The position numbers and the translations under genes are program-made. This document shows positions 3,240 to 12,748 of a stretch of 64,000 bases of DNA, piece by piece. The notes beneath the pieces were generated by a model. It had not been told where the DNA came from and did not search any database. It was given only the letters and a program-made list of their open reading frames with translations. Location: NCBI GenBank assembly GCA_963806195.1, contig CAWDXI010000002.1, positions 1,335,493-1,399,492 of the forward strand, written 5' to 3'. How positions within the stretch are numbered: position 1 is the stretch's first letter; each line of letters starts with the position of its first letter. The stretch is from an uncultured Acidobacteriaceae bacterium. GTDB taxonomy: Bacteria > Acidobacteriota > Terriglobia > Terriglobales > Acidobacteriaceae.

Positions 3240-3529
3240 CCTGCAGGAACACGCTGAGGGTCCCTAAGCTTGGTTGCCGGCCTTCCGCAGAGATGGTGAC
3301 ACTCAGTGTTAATCCGCAACCACTCGACGGTTCCCGAGTTGTCGGCCAGCCTTACCTTACCGGATTGTGGAAGGTTGCCCGTCACACAGGAACAATCGTC
3401 CAGAACCTGCGTGTGCGTAGCATCACTGACACCTGATCCGTCCCGGTTGCAAACTTGCAACGTATTTATCCCAGCAAGTGTCTAGAACGTAATTTGCCGC
3501 ATCCCTCCACGTCTCATGGAGGTCCTCGG

Positions 3530-6169
3530 ATGATTGGCGAGAAGTCAGCCACGCCGCACACCGCCGGAGAGACTCTGGGCCATTATCGCGTCATAGAGAA
3601 GATCGGTGCCGGCGGAATGGGCGAAGTCTATCGCGCCCGCGACGAGCACCTCGCCCGCGATGTTGCCATCAAAGTTCTTCCGCCCGGTACGCTAACTGAC
3701 GAATCAGCCCGCAAGCATTTCCACAAAGAAGCTCTGATTCTCTCGCAGCTCAACCATCCCAATGTCGCCACTATTTATGACTTCGACACGCAGCAGGGAG
3801 TGGACTTCTTGGTGATGGAATACATCCCCGGGATCACACTCAGCGAGAAGGTGGCTGCCGGACCGCTGCCGGAAAGGGAAGTCCTCCGGCTGGGAGTGCA
3901 ACTGGCCGAAGGGCTCGCGGCGGCGCATGAGCAAGGGGTAATTCACCGGGATCTGAAGCCGGGCAACGTGCGGGTGACGGCTGACGGGCGGGTGAAGATC
4001 CTGGACTTCGGGCTGGCGAAGCTGGTGGGGCCGTTCGGCGGGACGGAATCGACGCAGTCCCTGGGTGAAAGTCAGACCGTTGCGGGCACCCTGCCGTACA
4101 TGGCGCCCGAACAGTTGCGGGGACAGGCCTGCAATGTGCGGACTGACATCTACAGCGCCGGAGCCGTGCTCTACGAGATGGTAACTGGGCAGCGTGTGTT
4201 CCCCGGCGCCCAGAGCGGGGAGTTAGTCAACGCCATCTTTCACCGCGAACCAACGCCTGTCGGGAAGGTGAACTCCAAGGTGTCGCTCGCACTGGAAGCG
4301 GTGATCGGCAAAGCGCTGGAGAAGAATCCGGCGCGCCGACAGCAGAGCGCGCGCGGGTTGCTGGCCGATCTGCAAGCACTGGCGGCTTCAAGCGACGCGG
4401 TAGCTCCGGCAGCGGCAATGCAATGGTTCGGATGGGTGAAGTGGCGCATGCGACGGCGGTACCGCGCGTTGCTGGTCGCGGCCGCGTTCATTCTGGCGGC
4501 GCTGGTGGGCATGGTCTGGCTGTCCGGCCGTACGCCGGCCCTGGCTTTTGCGGCGCGAGATTTCGTACTGGTCAGCGATTTTGAGAACCAGACGGGCGAC
4601 CCGGTATTCGACAAGTCGTTGACGACGGCATTCACGACCAGCCTGGGGCAGTCGAGCTACGCCAATATCTACTCGCGGCTGCGCATAGCCGATTCTTTGA
4701 AGCGAATGGAAAAGCCCACGGTCAACCGGATCGACGAACCGTTGGCGCAAGAGATCGCCGTGCGGGAAGGGCTGAAAGTGATTGTCTTGCCGAGCATCAG
4801 CGGCGTCGGAGAAAACTACCGTATCGCGGCTAGTATCCGCGACGTGGCTTCAGGCAAAGACGTAAAGACCGAGTTTGTGAAAGCCCATGGCAAAGACAAG
4901 GTCCTCGATGCGGTAGACACGCTCTCCGCTGCGATTCGCAAGGACCTGGGCGAGAGCTTGCAGACCGTCTCGCAAAGCAAGCGACTCAGCTCGGTGACCA
5001 CGCAGTCGCTGGACGCGCTGCGGCAGTACTCGATCGCGACGGAGAGGGCCTTAGCGCTTCGATGGGACGAGGCGAAGGTGTATCTTGAAAACGCACTGCG
5101 CATCGATCCCACGTTCACGGCCGCCCGCGCCTCTCTAGGCATGATGCACGTGGAACAAGCCATGAACGGCTTGCCTCATTTTGATGGCGAAGAGGGCAAA
5201 CGCCTGCTGAGCGAGGCCGTGAAGCATGTGGACGGACTTACCGACCGGGAGAAATACGGCATCCTGGCGTTTCATGCCCGGGCGGTGGAAAAGAATCCGG
5301 AACGCGCAATCGGATACCTGAAAACCCTGATAGCGCTGTACCCCGACGACTCCGTCACTCACGTGAGCCTGGGCCGGACATACCTTCAGATGGGGCGCGT
5401 GCCGGAGGCGCTTGCGGAGTTCAAAGAAGCAATCCGGATCGATCCGAGATTCGTTCTCGCATACGCGAATGTAGGGGCCACCTACCTGTACCAGATGGGC
5501 GACGTCGCCTCGGCTCTGCCGGTGTGTCAGAAAATCCTGCAACTTGATCCGGGAAACGCCTGGGCGCAAGACTGTATTGGCTGGTCGTACTTTGCGAAGA
5601 ACGATCTTCCGCAGGCGCAAGCCGCGTTCGAGAAGGCGGTAGCGGCCAATCCGCAGGGAATCCTATCCCGCTACCGGTTGGCGCACACGCACCGGGCACA
5701 AGGCCACTACCGGCAGGCAATCGAAACGCTACAGCAGATCCAGAAGGTCGATCCGAGCGAAACCTCGGTGTTCTACGACATGGGAGTTGTATATGAGCGG
5801 ATGGGAGATCGCCAGAAAGCGCGCGAGTCTTTCACCCGCTTTCGCCGCGAGGTGGAAACGCATGAAAAAAAAACGTTGCATGAGCCGGGCACAGAACTGG
5901 TGCTAGCCGCAGACTGCGCGCGCCTTGGGGAAACCGAGCGCGCCCGGCAATTGCTCCGCAAGGCCATCGCGAAAGCGCCCCAGCTTCACCTGGAGGCGGC
6001 GTTTGTGCTCAGCCTGCTGGACGAGAAGAAAAAAGCGGTTGACCAACTGGAGCTGGCGATCCAGAACGGGTACACCAATTACATCTGGCTGATGATGAAT
6101 CCGGACCTGCTGCCGCTGCACGGATATCCGATGTTTGAGCAGTTGATGGGTAAGGTGTTAAAGACGTAG
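3530..6169 (+). CDS. Ser/Thr protein kinase with a transmembrane segment and C-terminal TPR repeats
   Basis: Kinase motifs are GAGGMGEVYRA, AIKVL, HRDLKPGNV, DFGLAK and LPYMAPE. A TM helix (ALLVAAAFILAALVGMVWL) and multiple TPR units follow. The ATG at 3530 (MIGEKSAT...) is preferred over the upstream TTG of the track ORF at 3455. Confidence 0.92.
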   Translation: MIGEKSATPHTAGETLGHYRVIEKIGAGGMGEVYRARDEHLARDVAIKVLPPGTLTDESARKHFHKEALILSQLNHPNVATIYDFDTQQGVDFLVMEYIPGITLSEKVAAGPLPEREVLRLGVQLAEGLAAAHEQGVIHRDLKPGNVRVTADGRVKILDFGLAKLVGPFGGTESTQSLGESQTVAGTLPYMAPEQLRGQACNVRTDIYSAGAVLYEMVTGQRVFPGAQSGELVNAIFHREPTPVGKVNSKVSLALEAVIGKALEKNPARRQQSARGLLADLQALAASSDAVAPAAAMQWFGWVKWRMRRRYRALLVAAAFILAALVGMVWLSGRTPALAFAARDFVLVSDFENQTGDPVFDKSLTTAFTTSLGQSSYANIYSRLRIADSLKRMEKPTVNRIDEPLAQEIAVREGLKVIVLPSISGVGENYRIAASIRDVASGKDVKTEFVKAHGKDKVLDAVDTLSAAIRKDLGESLQTVSQSKRLSSVTTQSLDALRQYSIATERALALRWDEAKVYLENALRIDPTFTAARASLGMMHVEQAMNGLPHFDGEEGKRLLSEAVKHVDGLTDREKYGILAFHARAVEKNPERAIGYLKTLIALYPDDSVTHVSLGRTYLQMGRVPEALAEFKEAIRIDPRFVLAYANVGATYLYQMGDVASALPVCQKILQLDPGNAWAQDCIGWSYFAKNDLPQAQAAFEKAVAANPQGILSRYRLAHTHRAQGHYRQAIETLQQIQKVDPSETSVFYDMGVVYERMGDRQKARESFTRFRREVETHEKKTLHEPGTELVLAADCARLGETERARQLLRKAIAKAPQLHLEAAFVLSLLDEKKKAVDQLELAIQNGYTNYIWLMMNPDLLPLHGYPMFEQLMGKVLKT

Positions 6170-6686
6170 CCGGTGATTTTCGAGACGGCAGCTCTTTCAG
6201 AGTTTTTGAACTCGACCATGAAAGGCGGCTCGAGGTTTTCGGCGATCGGCTTGTACTTGGCAGGCAACGGCTTCTGGGGAAGCGAAAAGTGCGGTTACGA
6301 TGGATAGTCGGCAAGCCGGAGAGCGCCGGGATAAACCGGCATGTTGTAGGGGATGAAAGAGCCCTACAGGAAAGGAAGCAGCGAATCCATCCTGGCCCCG
6401 AGTCTAGCAGGCGACACCGCGAGGTGTCGTTTGAAGCGTAGACAGGGGTATCGGTGGGCCGGGCTATTGAGCTTCGAAAAGCCGATGGAACAGGATGCCG
6501 ACTCCGTTCCGGTAGGGAGGAAGGCAACACGGCAACCACGTGAATCGCGAGTGGACTGTCGGTCCTGCGTAGTCTAAGAACCCGCGCACGCTGAGAAACA
6601 ACATGCACGAGAACCGGGAGATCTCCTGTACGTCTTGGTCGAAAGAACAAGACCGGTCCGCGAAGGCCATAAACCGAACGGCGGAC

Positions 6687-7322
6687 ATGAACGTACAGGA
6701 GAAGTCGGACTGTGCCGTAGTACCCGTGAACCAGTCGAACAAAGAAGAGCGATCTTCGGCGGAGACTGGGGAGGGAAGGGCACAGACTGAGGAGAACATC
6801 ATTCAATCACGCATGCGCCCGACACAGAGCGGGAAGCGTATGTCCCAGGGATTGGACGGTGTGCGGCAAGCGGCAAGAAAGAGGAAGCAGGAACGGTTCA
6901 CCGCTTTGCTCCACCATCTGAACGTCGGACTCCTCTGCGAGAGCTTTTACGCACTCAAGCGTCAGGCTTCTCCCGGAGTCGATGGCGTGACGTGGCAGGA
7001 GTATGAGACCGGATTGGAAGATCGGCTCGTTGATCTGCACAGTCGGGTGCATCATGGAGCGTATCGAGCCCAACCCTCACGACGAGTCTATATTCCGAAG
7101 GCTGACGGGCGACAACGTCCGTTAGGCATCGCGGCACTGGAGGACAAAATCGTTCAACAGGCCGTGGTGACGATTCTCAACCAGATCTATGAGATCGACT
7201 TCAAAGGCTTTTCGTACGGGTTTCGACCCGGTCGCAGCCCGCATCAAGCGCTGGACGCGCTGACGGCGGGCATCCAATGGAAACGAGTGAACTGGGTGCT
7301 CGATGCGGACATTCGTGGCTTC
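6687..7322 (+). pseudogene. Group II intron reverse transcriptase/maturase, N-terminal piece
   Basis: RFTALLHHLNVGLLCESFYALKRQASPGVDGVTWQEYE, RVYIPKADGRQRPLGIAALEDKIVQQAVV, SYGFRPGRSPHQAL and VLDADIRGF. Homology stops at codon 7320-7322. The rest of the track ORF (to 7382) is insertion sequence. Confidence 0.85.
7313..7322. repeat. TCGTGGCTTC, left copy of a 10-bp direct repeat bracketing the recombinase element
   Basis: The identical 10-mer recurs at 10057-10066. A third partial copy (TGGCTTC) lies at 7330-7336. Interpreted as att-arm similarity, not a target-site duplication. Confidence 0.6.
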
Positions 7323-7351
7323 TTGGATATGGCTTCATACTGCCCCCAGAT

Positions 7352-9562
7352 TCATGAAGTACTCTCAAACAGGTTCGGGTGATCGTCCACCACTCTGATT
7401 CGTAAGCCTTTACGACGTCCACGGGTTACTAACAAAGCTTCGAGCTCGCCACGCTTTACACGCTGCAACACGGTTTGGCGTGACACCCCAAGTTTCATCG
7501 TTGTTTCCAGCATGGGCAGATAGTCGGGCGGTGCTTGCTCGACAAAGCGTGCCCGCAGCTCATCGGTGATACGAATCTGCCAGGGCGCACCGGGCGTTAC
7601 TTGCTCACCGGCGATGAAACCATCATTCAGCCAGCGATGAATAGTGGAAGTGTTGATTCCCAGGATCTGCGCGGCTTTGCGAATCGTTGCCAGCTCCCCC
7701 GTGGGGGGCTCCACCGGCCGTCGGAATCGGGGAATGTTTCGATAGCGGCGGAGGCAGCCGACCTGATGAGCAGTAAAGCGTTCTCCGGTCGCCGTTTTTC
7801 GACCTTGACGATTCAGGATGCCGGCGATGACATCGTCGGAGTAATGAACAGCCAGGCGACGGAGCAAGGAGAGGGTATCTTCTTCGGTGCGTAGGCCACG
7901 CGGCTGGGAGCGCGGCAAGGAGAGATCTAGTTCGGTGAGCGTGCCGCCACGCCAGCGCAGAGTGAGATGAGCACGACGTTCGGGCCGATCGACGGTAACA
8001 ATCACTTCTTCCAGTAGAGTGCGCAAAAGCTCTTTGCGATCGCGATCCGTGGTGGTAGGCGCTGTCCAGACTTTGTTCAAATCGGAACCGAGAGATCGGA
8101 TCTTGTTTTTTTCTTCTGGGCCCAGAGCGCGAGGGCGTTGTTGTTCCCGCCGCTGGAGTTCTGCTTCGGCAGCAGCGAGATCGCGCAAACGTTTTTCCCA
8201 TTCTGTTTCCAACCCGCGCGCCACGAGCCGGTTTTCGGGCTCGACCGCACGATACTGGCGCTCCGCACGTTCTGCTTCGTAGCGAGCACGTTCCACCGCC
8301 AGGCGCCACTGACCGAGAGCTGCATCCTGGTCCGCTTCGAGTTGCTGTAGGGCAAGTTGCGTTGCTTCCACAGCCGCGGGCGTCACCGTTCGGAGAAAGG
8401 CCTCAACCACTGCCTGATCGATTTGCACGCCGCCGACGTTGAGACAGTACACGCCGCGTCCCTGGACGATATCCTTGCCGGAGCAATGGTAGCCGGGCGA
8501 GGAGTTTCTGCCGCGATAGTGAGTATGGAGTCGGCGGCCACACTTTCCACACGTGGCCAGGCCTTGCAGCAGCGCAGCGCCTTCTCTCACGGCACCTCCT
8601 GCTTGATGAGGTTGCGGATGAATGTTGGTGTCGATGCGGGCTTGGTTGGCTTGGAACATTGCCCAATCGATGAAGCCGGGATGGTGCTCGGGCAGAAGCA
8701 CGGACCACTCGGCCATGGGCAAATGACGAGTTCGTCTTCGGAGCATTCCTTGTTCATCGACATAACGTTGATGACGAGATTTTCCGTAGGCGTAAGCGCC
8801 AGCATACACCGGATTGGTGAGCACGTGATGGATGGCAGTGTAAGTCGGAGCGACCCAACGGATCTCACTTTTCATGTGGGCTCGCAGAGGGAAGGAAATA
8901 CCCTCGGAGCGGAACCAAAGCCAGACCTTGCGGACCGATCCAAGTTCCGTGAATTTAGAAAAGACCGTGCGGAGGGTGCTGACGACGGCTTCGTCGGGAT
9001 GAAAACGAACTTCGCCGTCCTCTTCTCCCCAAACGAAACCCACGGGTAACCCTCGGCGCAGTTCGCCGCGTGCGGCCTTATTGCGGATTCCACCGTCGAG
9101 TCGTGCACGCAGGATGTGCAGTTCTGCTTCCGACATAGTGCCCTTCAATCCGAGCACGAGACGATCGTTGAACAGTGCCGGATGATACACACCATCGCTG
9201 TCTCCGATCAGAGTGTCGGTTATGCCGCACAGATCGAGCAAGCGATACCAGTCGGCATTGTTGCGCGCCAGGCGGGAGACTTCCAGGCCGAGCACAATGC
9301 CCACATGCCCCAGAGCAACCTCTGCCGTCATATGCGCAAACCCGGAACGCTGCACCGATCCAGAACCGGATAAACCAAGATCTTGATCGATGACGATCAC
9401 TTGTTCCTTGGCCCAGCCCAGCTCGCAGGCTTTCTCGACCAAAGCGTACTGGCGAGCGGTGGACTCACGGTTGTACTCGACCTGCGAAGGACTGGATTGG
9501 CGAATATAGACGAAAGCAGCGCGTTGGGTATGACTTGGTTTTACTTTGCTGAAATCATTCAT
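7352..9562 (-). CDS. Large serine recombinase (resolvase catalytic domain, recombinase domain, zinc ribbon, coiled coil, two C-terminal excisionase-like HTH modules)
   Basis: 736 aa. AAFVYIRQSSPSQ carries the catalytic Ser context, followed by VLGLEVSRLARNNADWYRLLDLC. The Cys cluster is CGKCGRRLHTHY...YHCSG. The C-terminal modules are LATIRKAAQILGINTSTIHRWLNDG and MKLGVSRQTVLQRVKRGEL. Confidence 0.93.
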   Translation of the reverse strand: MNDFSKVKPSHTQRAAFVYIRQSSPSQVEYNRESTARQYALVEKACELGWAKEQVIVIDQDLGLSGSGSVQRSGFAHMTAEVALGHVGIVLGLEVSRLARNNADWYRLLDLCGITDTLIGDSDGVYHPALFNDRLVLGLKGTMSEAELHILRARLDGGIRNKAARGELRRGLPVGFVWGEEDGEVRFHPDEAVVSTLRTVFSKFTELGSVRKVWLWFRSEGISFPLRAHMKSEIRWVAPTYTAIHHVLTNPVYAGAYAYGKSRHQRYVDEQGMLRRRTRHLPMAEWSVLLPEHHPGFIDWAMFQANQARIDTNIHPQPHQAGGAVREGAALLQGLATCGKCGRRLHTHYRGRNSSPGYHCSGKDIVQGRGVYCLNVGGVQIDQAVVEAFLRTVTPAAVEATQLALQQLEADQDAALGQWRLAVERARYEAERAERQYRAVEPENRLVARGLETEWEKRLRDLAAAEAELQRREQQRPRALGPEEKNKIRSLGSDLNKVWTAPTTTDRDRKELLRTLLEEVIVTVDRPERRAHLTLRWRGGTLTELDLSLPRSQPRGLRTEEDTLSLLRRLAVHYSDDVIAGILNRQGRKTATGERFTAHQVGCLRRYRNIPRFRRPVEPPTGELATIRKAAQILGINTSTIHRWLNDGFIAGEQVTPGAPWQIRITDELRARFVEQAPPDYLPMLETTMKLGVSRQTVLQRVKRGELEALLVTRGRRKGLRIRVVDDHPNLFESTS

Positions 9563-9576
9563 GGCCCTTCTCCTCG

Positions 9577-10067
9577 TTATGACGTAGGGTTGCGTTCGCG
9601 ATGAGGCGCGCCAGGATGTTGATCGCGAGAAGCTTGTGTTCGTCGTGCAGTGTTTCCCACGGATAGGTTTCGTCGAGAAGAAGATCGAACAGGTTCCGAT
9701 TGTTTTCTTGCAATGGGGCCCTCCTTCGTTGCCGGGGAGTTGCCGTTCTCGCTTTGCAGTGCAGCGAGGCGACTGAGGAGAGCGTCTACGACGGCGCGTG
9801 CGTGAAGCAAGTCTTCCAGAGAGCCGAGGATTGCGGCCGTCTGTGCAGAGCGAACTTGTTGAGGTTGTGCCGTCGAGGCAAGATCTGTCCAGTCCACAGG
9901 GATCAGAGATTTACTGCCATCGGGCAAGATCAGAACGAGATGCAATCGACCTTTGCGATGAATCGATCCAAGAACGTCGAGCGCCCTGCCTTCGAACGGA
10001 TGGCGAGCACGGACAACGGTGACTCTCTCGGGAAGGTGCTGATGATGGGTAGTGTGTCGTGGCTTCC
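9577..10067 (-). CDS. Small recombinase-associated protein (DUF5372-like by recollection); N-terminus lacks a start codon in the integrated state
   Basis: The frame is open from the right junction: KPRHTTHHQHLPERVTVVRARHPFEGRALDVLGSIHRKGRLHLVLILPDGSKSLIPVDWTDL. The only canonical start inside is the TTG at 9945 (the track ORF 9577-9945), which would cut off the conserved HPFEG part. An in-frame TGA lies in the flank at 10104-10102. The ORF stops 14 nt before the recombinase ATG. Confidence 0.55.
10057..10066. repeat. TCGTGGCTTC, right copy of the 10-bp direct repeat
   Basis: Identical to 7313-7322. It is followed by C then TT, then the resumed RT frame. Confidence 0.6.
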
Positions 10068-10909
10068 TTCGACAACATGAACCACGAGTGGACAGTGAAG
10101 TTCATCGAGCATCGCGTGGCTGATCGCCGGATACTTCGCCTGATCCAGAAATGGTTGAAGGCAGGAGTTTCGGAAGATGGTCAGTGGTCGGAGACGATGG
10201 TCGGTACACCGCAAGGAGCAGTTGCTTCACCGCTGCTCGCCAACGTGTACCTGCACTACGTCTTCGATCTATGGGTCGAGGTCTGGCGCAAGAAAGTGGC
10301 GAAGGGCGATGTGATCGTCGTTCGCTACGCCGATGATCTTGTGCTTGGCTTTCAACATCGAACGGACGCTGAGCGATTCCTTCGGGAGTTTCGGGATCGA
10401 TTGGCCAAGTTCGGTTTGGAGTTACACGCGGACAAGACACGACTGATCGAATTCGGGCGGTTCGCCGCTCGAAACCGGAAGCAGCGTGGCGAGGGAAAAC
10501 CTGAGACCTTTACATTTCTGGGTTTCACTCACTTCTGTGGGCAGCGCATCAGCGACAAGGCTTTCATCGTCTGGCGGATTACGGCGAAGAAGCGAATGGT
10601 CGCGAAACTCAAAGCCATCAAGGCCGAGCTTCAATGCCAAAAGCATCATCGTACGACCGCGGTCGGTGCATGGCTTCGCCAGGTTGTGCTGGGCTACTAC
10701 CAATACCATGCCGTTCCAGGGAACTCGACTCAGTTGCGCATCTTTCAACGTCGCGTTTGCTGGTTGTGGCGGAGCGTCCTTGTCCGTCGCAGCCAACGCG
10801 CACAGGTGCGATGGGCTCGTCTCTCCCCAGTCTTGACCCGGTGGATTCCTCAACCCGCATTCTGCATCCCTACCCTGATGCACGCTTCGCCGCTACCCAT
10901 CCACGGTAA
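10068..10909 (+). pseudogene. Group II intron reverse transcriptase/maturase, C-terminal piece, with a 1-nt frameshift near 10854-10857
   Basis: FDNMNHEWTVKFIEHRV, GTPQGAVASPLLANVYLHYVFD, VRYADDLVLGF, FLGFTHF and YYQYHAVPGN. Frame 0 gives ...LTRWIPQP. The canonical tail RILHPYPDARFAATHPR* is in the -1 frame and ends at TAA 10907-10909, directly abutting domain V. Confidence 0.85.
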
Positions 10910-10981
10910 GAGCCGTATGCGTAAACGCGCTTGTACGGATCTGTGCGGGGGGCGACCAGCGATGGTCGTCCCTACCGCGAC
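10910..10981 (+). ncRNA. Group II intron domains V and VI (catalytic hairpin and branch-site hairpin)
   Basis: DV: GAGCCGTAT-GCG-TAAA-CGC-(GCTT)-GTACGGATC, containing the AGC triad. One G-A mismatch sits at the usual G-U position. DV also has a 4-nt (GCTT) 3'-strand bulge where the canonical bulge is about 2 nt. DVI: GCGG-GGGGCGACCA-GCGA-TGGTCGTCCC-(TA)-CCGC, then GAC. Confidence 0.7.
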
Positions 10982-11139
10982 AGTTGGACCACGGCAAGCA
11001 GGTCGGGCCATAAGTCGGCTTCTGTGAAGTCAAAATTCATGGGAATTTGGCAAAATTGTCCCAGGCGTGTTCACGCCTGTGCTCGCCAAACACTCAAAGT
11101 CGTTCTCGGTTATCGACTGCATCAGTCGGCGTGGATCGC

Positions 11140-11451
11140 ATGCAGAGAAATTTTGAGCCGATGCGACAGCAAGTAGAGCTTTGGCAAAAAGGCGAGCTCA
11201 CCGACGTGACCGCGAAGGTCGTCATCTACGAGGCCTTTGTCGAGGGCAAGCTCGATGCTCCAAAGCATCTTGCTCGCATCGTCCACGATCTCTACTTCAC
11301 GCCGACATACGATAATTTCCGGCCACGAACAATCTGGAGCCTCTCGAATGCGTTCACCTCTGCATTCAAGGAACTGGACCCGATTCCGCAGTTTAAGGCC
11401 ACTGCGAAGCTGGGCGGGTTCCCGAAGGCGCGGTTCTCCGGGTCGTTCTAG
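11140..11451 (+). CDS. Hypothetical protein
   Basis: The ATG at 11140 gives MQRNFEPMRQQVELWQKGELTDVTAKVVIYEAF...RTIWSLSNAFTSAFKELDPIPQFKATAKLGGF. The stop TAG (11449-11451) lies inside the IS1595 target duplication. I am not confident of any family. Confidence 0.45.
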   Translation: MQRNFEPMRQQVELWQKGELTDVTAKVVIYEAFVEGKLDAPKHLARIVHDLYFTPTYDNFRPRTIWSLSNAFTSAFKELDPIPQFKATAKLGGFPKARFSGSF

Positions 11452-11455
11452 CTAG

Positions 11456-12490
11456 CTTCTGATTATCCGGTTGGTTCAGCAACCCCCAATCGGTTGTGGT
11501 TGAGGTCTTTAGCTCCTCGAATCTGCTCATACTCGGTTGATTTGTGGCCGGTTCCGAGACCAAGAAGGGTCTGAAATGCGGCAGCCGGCGTCTTGCGGCG
11601 ATTGTGCCGAAAAACGAACTCGTCGAGGTATACCTGGAGTTGGGCCTTACTCACACCGTGGTAGGTGCCGATGAGCCACTGCTGGAGGTTGCCAATGGCT
11701 CGATCGGCAAGTGGAACGGCGGACTTCGCACCTTTTCGTAGCTCCGAGCGGAGCGGCTGGATGCGAGCGACATGTTTAAAGCCGGCCTCAACCAGACCTG
11801 CGAAACTCTTGAGGCCGTCGGTATAGATGGTGGAACCAGGTGCGACGTTCCGGGTGAGTACCGGGATTATCGTGCTGGCCTTGAAGTCGGGAATCACACT
11901 CATGCGAGCCCGACCGGACGCGTGACCACGCTTTTCCACCGCCACCAGAACGAGAGCCGCTCGTCGATCCTTGAGTTGCCGGCTCCCTTGCAGCCCGGCT
12001 TGCTCGCCGCCAACCCACGTGTCATCAACCTCTACCTCGCCGCGCAGGGGCTCCCGAGCCGCATTCACCATGGCCCGGCGGAGCTTGTGAAGCATCATCC
12101 ATGCGGTCTCGTAACTGGAAAGACCGAGTTGACGCTGGAGAAGCAGGGCGGACACGCCACGCTTGTCAGTGGTCATCAGATACGCCGCCCAGAACCAGTG
12201 GGTCAATGGAATCTTGGTCCGGTGAAGCACTGTCCCGGATGTCAACGAAACCTGGTGCCGGCATTTGGTGCATTGGTGACGCCCTTGGTTCACCAATTCA
12301 TACGCTCTTTCGTGCCCGCATCGCGGACAACTGAACCCATCCGGCCAACGGCACCCCGTCAAATACTGCTGGCAAGCATCCTCTGTGGCGAAGTCGGTCT
12401 GAAACTGACGAAGCGTCTTGGGGAACGGGGGTCGGGCCACCCCAATACACTACCCATTGGGGCTTGCTGAAGCAACCGGATAATCAGAAG
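11456..12490 (-). mobile_element. IS1595-family insertion sequence (1,035 bp) with 27-bp terminal inverted repeats and an 8-bp target duplication CTAGCTAG
   Basis: The left end is CTTCTGATTATCCGGTTGGTTCAGCAA (11456-11482). The reverse complement of 12464-12490 is CTTCTGATTATCCGGTTGCTTCAGCAA, a single mismatch. CTAGCTAG flanks both ends (11448-11455 and 12491-12498). Confidence 0.85.
11463..12440 (-). CDS. IS1595-family (ISXO2-like) DDE transposase with N-terminal zinc ribbon
   Basis: 325 aa: CQQYLTGCRWPDGFSCPRCGHERAYEL...HQCTKCRHQVSLTSGTVLHRTKIPLTHWFWAAYLM, VEVDDTWVGG, IYTDGLKSF and YLDEFVFRHNRR. Confidence 0.92.
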   Translation of the reverse strand: MARPPFPKTLRQFQTDFATEDACQQYLTGCRWPDGFSCPRCGHERAYELVNQGRHQCTKCRHQVSLTSGTVLHRTKIPLTHWFWAAYLMTTDKRGVSALLLQRQLGLSSYETAWMMLHKLRRAMVNAAREPLRGEVEVDDTWVGGEQAGLQGSRQLKDRRAALVLVAVEKRGHASGRARMSVIPDFKASTIIPVLTRNVAPGSTIYTDGLKSFAGLVEAGFKHVARIQPLRSELRKGAKSAVPLADRAIGNLQQWLIGTYHGVSKAQLQVYLDEFVFRHNRRKTPAAAFQTLLGLGTGHKSTEYEQIRGAKDLNHNRLGVAEPTG

Positions 12491-12748
12491 CTAGCTAGGA
12501 CGCCTAACTGCATTGTGTCGGTGCGGAATTCGGTCCTGTATACATCTGGGGCTTTGATATCGGCCAAGCTCGATATCGATGAACGCCCGCTGTGCGCAAC
12601 TTTTCATATGTCCTTAACACAAGCTCAACGTTACTTCCTTACCTTCACGAGATCGGTTGTGAGGCCTCGGACGGGATGATTACCTCGGTCGCACTCCGCC
12701 TCACGGAGGGATTCGTGAGGAACCTTTTAGAAGGAAAGGAATTCCGGT

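Follow-up and report, generated by a model that had tools for sequence, protein, structure and literature searches.

A small serine-recombinase element in group II intron reverse transcriptase genes, with an accessory gene apparently split by the attachment site

Introduction

Some mobile elements use a large serine recombinase (LSR) as their only 'transposase'. This is the case for the clostridial elements Tn4451/Tn4453, which encode TnpX, and Tn5397, which encodes TndX. Each passes through a circular intermediate, recombines at a 2-bp crossover and leaves no target duplication, and in Tn4451 the junction of the circle assembles a promoter for tnpX. Here we describe a 2745-bp element that lies in the reverse transcriptase (RT) gene of a group II intron, in DNA from an uncultured Acidobacteriaceae bacterium (GenBank assembly GCA_963806195.1, contig CAWDXI010000002.1, positions 1,335,493 to 1,399,492 of the forward strand). 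All coordinates refer to this whole stretch of 64,000 nucleotides, which we call the window. The element resembles the Tn4451 group in having an LSR as sole transposase and, as in Tn4451, a junction that would alter the expression of an element gene. The clostridial elements differ in being larger and cargo-carrying, with a loose target preference and a junction promoter, whereas the element described here is 2.7 kb, has no cargo, is inserted at a conserved codon pair in a gene of another mobile element, and would assemble an open reading frame (ORF) at its junction.

Other systems share part of this behavior. In the circles of the insertion sequences (IS) IS911, IS2 and IS30 the abutted ends contribute a −35 and a −10 element to a junction promoter that is thought to drive integration. 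These circles also gain expression from joined ends, but theirs is a transcriptional device of DDE transposons, whereas the device proposed here would act at the level of translation and coding in a serine-recombinase element. In the integration-dependent immunity systems of mycobacteriophages, and in intP of Mx8, attP lies within a phage gene and the integrated and excised products differ; in these tyrosine-integrase phages it is the 3′ end, and with it the C-terminus, of a repressor or integrase that is altered, while here it is the 5′ end with the start codon that is removed. Phage LSRs are accompanied by recombination directionality factors (RDFs) such as Bxb1 gp47, phiC31 gp3 and SPbeta SprB, and the element likewise encodes small accessory proteins beside its LSR. 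Excision by attL x attR recombination requires the phage RDFs, which must therefore be made in the integrated state, whereas the element is expected to make its protein A only once it has been excised.

The closest parallel is found in the 'suicidal' SSV1-type tyrosine integrases, in which attP lies in the recombinase gene and integration splits that gene, and which occur exclusively in archaea (PMC8371274). As in the element described here, attP is inside coding sequence, and only the excised or episomal form carries the gene intact. The archaeal systems differ in that the gene split is that of the recombinase, a tyrosine enzyme; here the LSR ORF (9562..7352) stays intact on integration, which sets it apart from a 'suicidal' integrase, and it is an accessory gene, in bacteria, that is split after codon 5. 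A first-pass annotation, made from the letters of the window alone, had proposed a coding-level junction device at this locus. The split itself is supported by our analysis, but the archaeal integrases mean that it is not without precedent. The literature that we searched held no description of the family, of targeting to RT, IstB or transposase genes, or of an attP that separates a gene from its start codon, while the enzyme and its recombination chemistry are standard LSR features.

Comparison of the window with related copies demonstrates, at the level of sequence, where the element begins and ends, what it targets, the point of crossover, its recent mobility and the conservation of its split architecture. 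We consider it probable that 7323-10067 is an intact and recently active LSR element whose attP splits a small gene, gene A, that is whole only on DNA carrying attP.

The insertion site and boundaries of the element

The RT frame of the host intron stops at ..DADIRGF (TTC at 7320-7322) and resumes with FDNMNHEW at 10068. When 7323-10067 is removed in silico (2745 bp; removal of 7325-10069 is equivalent) a single RT ORF is obtained that reads ..DADIRGFFDNMNHEW.., while recombination between the 10-bp repeats TCGTGGCTTC would remove 2744 bp and leave the RT frameshifted. Both outcomes agree with the first-pass annotation. No comparable repeat was evident by eye at the junctions of the other copies inspected, and as far as those junctions tell the repeat is incidental and not a feature of the family. 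The host intron is a true member of group II: matches to Rfam models RF02005 and RF00029 flank the RVT_1 ORF, and the homologues carry the name group II intron reverse transcriptase/maturase.

An uninterrupted intron with 97% RT identity (locus L103) supplies the corresponding empty site, GACATTCGTGGCTTC-TT-TGACAACATGAAC, which is the predicted attB save for one synonymous base. The empty site holds a single TT, TT is present at both junctions of the element, and a target-site duplication is absent. This locus was reached through the closest uninterrupted RT; a degenerate pattern found no empty site among the fetched loci, and the window itself contained no other copy of the element and no empty site. 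The protein sequences give the same picture, as had been anticipated for the predicted attB: among the best 120 of 7,994 matches, all 120 of the closest uninterrupted RTs read D-A-D-I-x-G-F-F-D across the site, and 34 read exactly DADIRGFFDNMNH.

The host RT also carries an additional frameshift, after ..TRWIPQP (within 10850-11027). Intact homologues are 520 aa long and end in RTLHPYPDARFAASHPR, an ending for which the coding sequence lies here in a different frame (ORF 10634-10909). As a result of this frameshift, excision alone would not fully restore this particular RT.

A gene completed by the circle junction

In the integrated element the ORF of gene A runs without a stop as far as the right junction. 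Before a TTG at 9945 it contains no ATG, GTG or TTG, and it meets an in-frame TGA in the flank at 10104-10102. When the ends of the element are joined at the TT the sequence becomes TGA-ATCTGGGGGCAGT-ATG AAG CCA TAT CCA AGG AAG.., which opens an ORF of 168 codons. Rereading the sequence and rebuilding the circle bore out the earlier description of both states, and the same layout recurs in 53 complete relatives. In every one of these 53 copies the far end provides a Shine-Dalgarno (SD)-like run, and with it an ATG or GTG whose frame continues across the core, so that no complete copy lacks a start over the junction; in one subclade the far end reads GTG-TAG and is followed by a second ATG. In two copies from Proteobacteria, L085 (plasmid pWW53) and L086 (Mycetohabitans), the ATG precedes the core by 10 nt and not by 13 nt, a shift of exactly one codon that keeps the frame.

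The codons that follow the junction behave as coding sequence. From about codon 17 the amino acids of gene A are kept while synonymous sites vary, with all four codons used for P18 and for V21 and six for R20. The conservation of codons 17-20 (L/F-P-E-R) with free synonymous change indicates that they are translated. Codons 10-15 (HTTHHQ) are invariant including their third positions, and overlap the P arm of the attachment site described below, which suggests that they are both coding sequence and a putative binding site. A conserved internal start, which would have overturned the claim that the gene can begin only across the junction, was not found in 55 distinct elements: V21 is GTC, GTT or GTA in 42 of them and GTG in the other 13, and the stretch from the junction to R25 has no further ATG, GTG or TTG. 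Overall tallies of internal starts differ, one giving 49 of the 55 elements with no start codon inside the element and another giving 6 of the 55 without a canonical start before R25.

Gene callers assign heterogeneous N-termini to gene A across the copies. In the PGAP annotation of plasmid copies (L086, L088 and L092-L094) the gene is never called, presumably because it has no start codon, and only a hypothetical protein of 52-54 aa is given upstream of the recombinase. The product of gene A matches Pfam DUF5372 (PF17342) over residues 28-100 with 17.7 bits (E 0.0038), short of the 25 bits that the gathering threshold requires. For several homologues a PF17342 match had been precomputed, and gene A is a divergent relative at best. 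In its structure model protein A consists of a small SH3/Tudor-like barrel (residues ~15-62), modelled with confidence, followed by a helix (84-107) and then a basic, disordered tail, which overlaps gene B.

The family and its recent movement

More than 100 copies of the family were found, in metagenome-assembled genomes (MAGs) of Acidobacteriota and on proteobacterial plasmids. The genome scan gave 80 loci, nearly all in MAGs of Acidobacteriota (Terriglobia) and often with four to six copies in one genome. One copy (L047) is in Edaphobacter aggregans DSM 19364. The 53 complete copies are 2716-2748 bp long and have the same ends. All but two of these (51/53) interrupt F↓FD codons, where the arrow marks the junction, antisense to the RT and with crossover at TT. 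The rebuilt targets read xDxD(I/L)xx(F/Y)↓FDxxxH and belong to more than 10 RT lineages; the exceptions are L048 and L028. The first of these (QHYS01000153.1) is complete, has AA at either junction and lies at a site that is not in an RT, which indicates that off-target insertion occurs. L028 has a damaged right end. The left end of L022 is truncated, and truncated family copies comprise L022, L028 and L087-L090.

Over 2.72-2.74 kb, copies from the same MAG are 99.96-100% identical, whereas the flanking DNA is either unrelated at the nucleotide level or only 90-97% identical, and the identity ends exactly at the AA core. Elements this similar in differing flanks must have moved recently. Two sets, each from a single MAG (L020/L021/L026 and L017/L018), have elements that are 99.85-100% identical within introns whose flanks are 90-97% identical. 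This gap argues for independent entry into intron copies that had already diverged, and not for carriage as cargo of a retrohoming intron.

Six plasmid copies from Proteobacteria have LSRs that are 62-68% identical to that of the window and also split group II intron RTs at F↓FD. The proteobacterial hosts include the TOL plasmid pWW53, Pseudomonas mandelii, Mycetohabitans, Cupriavidus, Bradyrhizobium, Mesorhizobium and Rhizobium. The pWW53 copy occupies NC_008275.1 76006-78710, in a group II intron RT (VNWILDADITSF↓FDEIDHEW), and its LSR is annotated as two 'recombinase family protein' coding sequences. The TOL plasmid pDK1 (NC_014124.1) gave a matching hit in the search and is known by that match alone, and nothing relevant was found in the first 25 kb of pNGR234a.

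The recombinase and its attachment sites

The Pfam domains of the 736-aa protein are those expected of an LSR, as the first-pass annotation had assigned it: Resolvase PF00239 (residues 16-167), Recombinase PF07508 (194-313), Zn_ribbon_recom PF13408 (331-389) and HTH_17. It matches PHROG 95, integrase, with an E value of 3.6e-55, and is distant from LSRs of solved structure. Residues ~620-736 (window 7352-7700) form a long C-terminal extension with an excisionase/MerR-type helix-turn-helix (HTH) at 626-664, and a second similar HTH can be seen by eye near residues 690-720. Such an extension is unusual for LSRs and could add DNA recognition or a built-in control of directionality.

As is the case in other LSR systems, the predicted attP consists of two imperfectly inverted arms around a core, here AA (TT on the RT strand). 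The arms P and P′ share GGA and CA.ACT.CCC at equal distances from the core. At the right-end junction, on the side of gene A, 56 of 58 copies have AA as the core; at the left-end junction every one of the 53 complete copies does. With gene A on the top strand the right junction has the form flank..TC(G/A)-AA-GGA..CGACACACTACCCA, and the left junction runs from the LSR stop as A..GGGGGCA(G/T)T-ATG-N6-GATC(C/G)-AA-flank. The predicted circle junction is ..GGGGGCAGTATGAAGCCATATCC-AA-GGAAGCCACGACACAC.. Together with the point at which identity between copies of one MAG ends, and the match of the empty site to attB, these junctions support TT as the crossover dinucleotide, as had been suggested from the window. 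The suggested attP is likewise backed by this family form and by junctions of the attP type in related elements.

Those attP-type junctions were found as contigs from metagenomes in which the order is LSR 3′ end, attP, gene A, LSR 5′ end. Four sequence variants were present, represented by the contigs L002, whose junction is identical to that of L084 from another data set, L083 and L101 and by the proteins P0044 and P0050. The proteins P0006 and P0038 likewise point to DNA that bears attP. The two ends of the element share far less than a k-mer, which makes it unlikely that these joins are artefacts of assembly.

Sister clades in genes of other mobile elements

Three sister clades have LSRs that are ~38-42% identical to that of the window, with unrelated att sequences and other cores, and each carries a DUF5372-like ORF that lacks a start. 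In each clade an SD and an ATG stand at the LSR-distal end in frame with this ORF. One clade is inserted in IS3-family transposase genes (target SVGSVG↓DSYDNA, core CC) and another in the region of IS21 istB that encodes the IstB P-loop (target FLGQP↓GCGKT, core GG). The third lies in IS66 transposase genes (target LFAGSD↓GGA), and there the LSR stop overlaps the ATG as ATGA. The sister elements occupy several istB sites, of which the P-loop is one. Loci L095-L100 of these clades are on the plasmids NZ_CP067421.1, NZ_CP141049.1, NZ_CP054622.1, NZ_CP147719.1, NZ_CP054618.1 and CP029174.1; for L095, L096 and L098 the junctions could not be placed, since the flanks either overlap or sit out of register by 1 nt. 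Searching plasmids gave 455 records with E<1e-50, the majority of them rhizobial.

Gene B and the packing of three genes

The first-pass annotation described an element of two genes, but there are three. The third, gene B (9713..9555), is read in a different frame from the 3′ part of gene A. The phase of third-position variability switches to the frame of gene B ~345 nt from the junction, and selection over the last ~48 codons of the 168-codon ORF accordingly acts on gene B. Its start interchanges between TTG, GTG and ATG across the elements behind a conserved SD, which accounts for the invariant K120-E121 of frame A. Gene B is called as a protein of 52-53 aa in 95 clusters, and it is modelled as a short helix followed by a long helix. 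PGAP has once annotated it as a 'DUF2309 domain-containing protein'.

Frame A is nevertheless kept open across gene B. At third positions of gene B codons that precede AA, AG or GA, T occurs in 44 of 642 cases, compared with 219 of 1157 elsewhere, and the 44 amount to about one per element, which is the stop of gene A itself. That stop is within ~17 nt of the LSR ATG, and the stop of gene B overlaps the same ATG. Since both genes end at the start of the recombinase, translational coupling is suggested.

A programmed +1 frameshift from A to B, at CCC-A behind AAGGAGG in a layout like that of prfB, was considered and set aside, as the interchange of TTG, GTG and ATG fits a true initiation codon. 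Sequence searches of Pfam, NCBIfam, PHROGs and the PDB gave no functional clue for either protein. Neither resembles known RDFs by sequence, and a fold search of the PDB, made for protein A, found no such likeness.

A proposed mechanism and its alternatives

The element would move by conservative recombination through its own LSR. The attB is the DNA that encodes the RT motif xDxD(I/L)xx(F/Y)↓FDxxxH, with insertion antisense to the RT and crossover at the TT of a Phe codon, and excision would restore the RT at the junction exactly. The three genes lie packed on one strand in the order A, B, LSR. The left end, which is distal to the LSR, holds the SD, the ATG and four further codons of gene A, beginning 13 nt past the stop of the LSR, and codon 6 onward is at the other end. 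With attP inside the 5′ end of gene A, the gene has no start of its own in the chromosome, whereas on the circle, or on any DNA with attP, it becomes a complete ORF that follows the LSR in operon order.

Full-length protein A would then be made only from the attP-bearing, excised form, and would be a functional parallel to the junction promoters of IS circles. Most plausibly it would act on the circle, where it may favor integration, block re-excision, or raise translation of the LSR by coupling. As it could not be made before excision, it is unlikely to be a classical RDF for excision. The small gene B, whose own SD and start are present in both states, appears the better candidate for an excision (directionality) factor. 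More tentatively, there may be a widespread superfamily of minimal LSR elements inside RT, IstB, IS3 and IS66 genes that use a split gene to sense their state, with protein A as an integration or directionality factor specific to the circle (a phage RDF in reverse), a switch for LSR coupling, or both; we regard this as possible but rather doubtful.

Several observations weigh against a gene that is whole, and working, only on attP-bearing DNA. The metagenome scan did not find the attP junction of this particular element, and the attP contigs of its relatives could come from head-to-tail tandem copies instead of free circles. No sigma-70-like promoter was predicted on either strand of the linear window from 7100 to 10300, with a tool that lacks acidobacterial promoter types, and the abutted circle junction showed no obvious −35 or −10 hexamers by eye. 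A factor made only after excision is a role without direct precedent among LSR systems. The best Foldseek match of protein A in the PDB has an E value of 0.03 and is not an informative neighbor, the fold being generic and giving no clue to function. An in-frame ATG, GTG or TTG is present in the flank of 13 of 57 integrated copies (in one example a GTG that arises from the antisense of ..IPH codons), and gene A is therefore not strictly silent everywhere. Finally, the SD run and ATG stand inside the P′ arm motif CATAcTGCCCCC, the mirror of CACACTACCCAT in the P arm, and for this reason their conservation within the acidobacterial clade alone cannot prove a coding role.

These last two points would fit an explanation in which the left-end SD and ATG are kept only as a recombinase-binding site, gene A is translated in the integrated state from a flanking or non-canonical start, and the junction ORF is a by-product. 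We think this unlikely. In the remaining 44 of the 57 integrated copies the flank offers no start, and in many a stop lies one to four codons upstream; the copy in the window is one of the 44 and has no CTG, ATT, ATC, ATA or ACG between the junction and R25 either. The confounding of start codon and binding arm is broken by the displacement of the ATG by exactly 3 nt in the proteobacterial copies and by the three sister clades, which have an SD and ATG in frame despite unrelated att sites and cores. A rough estimate of the probability that this would arise by chance is ~0.08 per clade, allowing the ATG at ~5 in-frame positions, or ~4e-5 for four clades.

It is harder still to sustain the idea that gene A begins inside the element, at V21 or later, and that 'RKPRHTTHHQHLPE' upstream of it is untranslated att DNA, even though the invariant third positions of codons 10-15 are what a binding site would give and gene callers sometimes begin at V21 where it is GTG (P0003-5). 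The window is among the elements in which V21 is not a possible start of this kind, the amino acid conservation of codons 17-20 lies upstream of it, and a start at TTG 9945 would remove about half of the modelled barrel, including its first two strands; we regard an internal start as very unlikely. The suggestion that the element is a decaying relic, with the missing start as the mark of a pseudogene, could draw on the additional frameshift of the host RT and on the truncated copies in the family, but is highly improbable. The LSR is full length like those of its relatives, genes A and B are uninterrupted, and the start-less state is the rule in sets of 100%-identical copies that have evidently just moved. 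The preferred explanation is thus the one in which attP separates gene A from its start.

Features of the locus and its surroundings

The features of the element and its host intron are collected in Table 1. An insertion sequence of the IS1595 family lies ~460 bp past the 3′ end of the intron (11444-12502). It encodes a transposase (11463-12440, minus strand) with DDE_Tnp_IS1595 and Zn_ribbon_IS1595 domains and is bounded by inverted repeats of ~55 bp (11444-11498 and 12448-12502) that are 91% identical. Upstream of the intron, 3455-6169 encodes a Ser/Thr protein kinase of 904 aa with a C-terminal TPR array, which appears to be unrelated.

Table 1. Coordinates of the element, its genes and attachment site, and the host intron in the window
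Feature	Position	Strand	Evidence
Host group II intron, 5′ RNA domains (D1-D4)	6356..6582	+	Rfam RF02005, 159.7 bits, E 4.7e-47
Host intron RT ORF, 5′ part, to ..DADIRGF	6603..7322	+	ORF list; RVT_1 match on rejoined protein; 97% identical to uninterrupted RTs
Mobile element, 2745 bp including one copy of the TT core (= 7325-10069)	7323..10067	-	Deletion restores RT; ends shared by family; empty site L103
TT crossover dinucleotide, left-junction copy	7323..7324	.	AA/TT at family junctions, 56/58 copies
Gene A detached 5′ piece: ATG (7338..7336) AAG CCA TAT CC plus core	7323..7338	-	In frame with body across rebuilt junction
attP P′ arm (predicted recombinase half-site), left end	7325..7351	.	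Outward P′ consensus GGATCcatcTtCATAcTGCCCCC; mirrors P arm GGAa.ctACgACACACTACCCAT
GGGGG SD-like run, between LSR stop (7354..7352) and gene A ATG	7343..7347	-	Conserved in family; also part of the P′ arm inverted repeat
LSR, 736 aa, with C-terminal excisionase-like HTH (residues 626-664)	7352..9562	-	Pfam, PHROG
Gene B, 52 aa, helical; SD AAGGAGG (9726..9720), TTG start; stop overlaps LSR start	9555..9713	-	Codon-phase variability, structure model
Gene A body, codons 6-168, weakly DUF5372-like	9577..10068	-	274 homologues; codon-level selection; structure model
attP P arm, right end; also codes RKPRHTTHHQ of gene A	10040..10067	.	Near-invariant nucleotides including third positions: ACT 54/55, ACC 51/55
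TT crossover dinucleotide, right-junction copy	10068..10069	.	Family junction comparison
Host intron RT ORF, 3′ part, from FDNMNHEW; extra frameshift after ..RWIPQP	10068..10909	+	ORF list, rejoined protein, RT homologues
Host intron domain V/VI	10908..10981	+	Rfam RF00029, 42.3 bits

Significance

Members of the family are present on well-studied replicons such as the TOL plasmid pWW53, where annotation pipelines miss gene A. LSRs are used as tools for genome engineering, and a compact LSR with two tiny partners and state-dependent control would be a new directionality system. Until now, genes split by attP have been presented as a peculiarity of archaeal tyrosine integrases (PMC8371274). If the reading favored here is right, the element adds a way in which mobile DNA in bacteria could sense whether it is integrated or free, by parting an SD and start codon from their gene with an attachment site. 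The family itself consists of very small, currently active LSR elements, of which the literature that we searched has no description. They insert into conserved motifs of other selfish elements, which would make them 'parasites of parasites' with many neutral landing sites in each genome.

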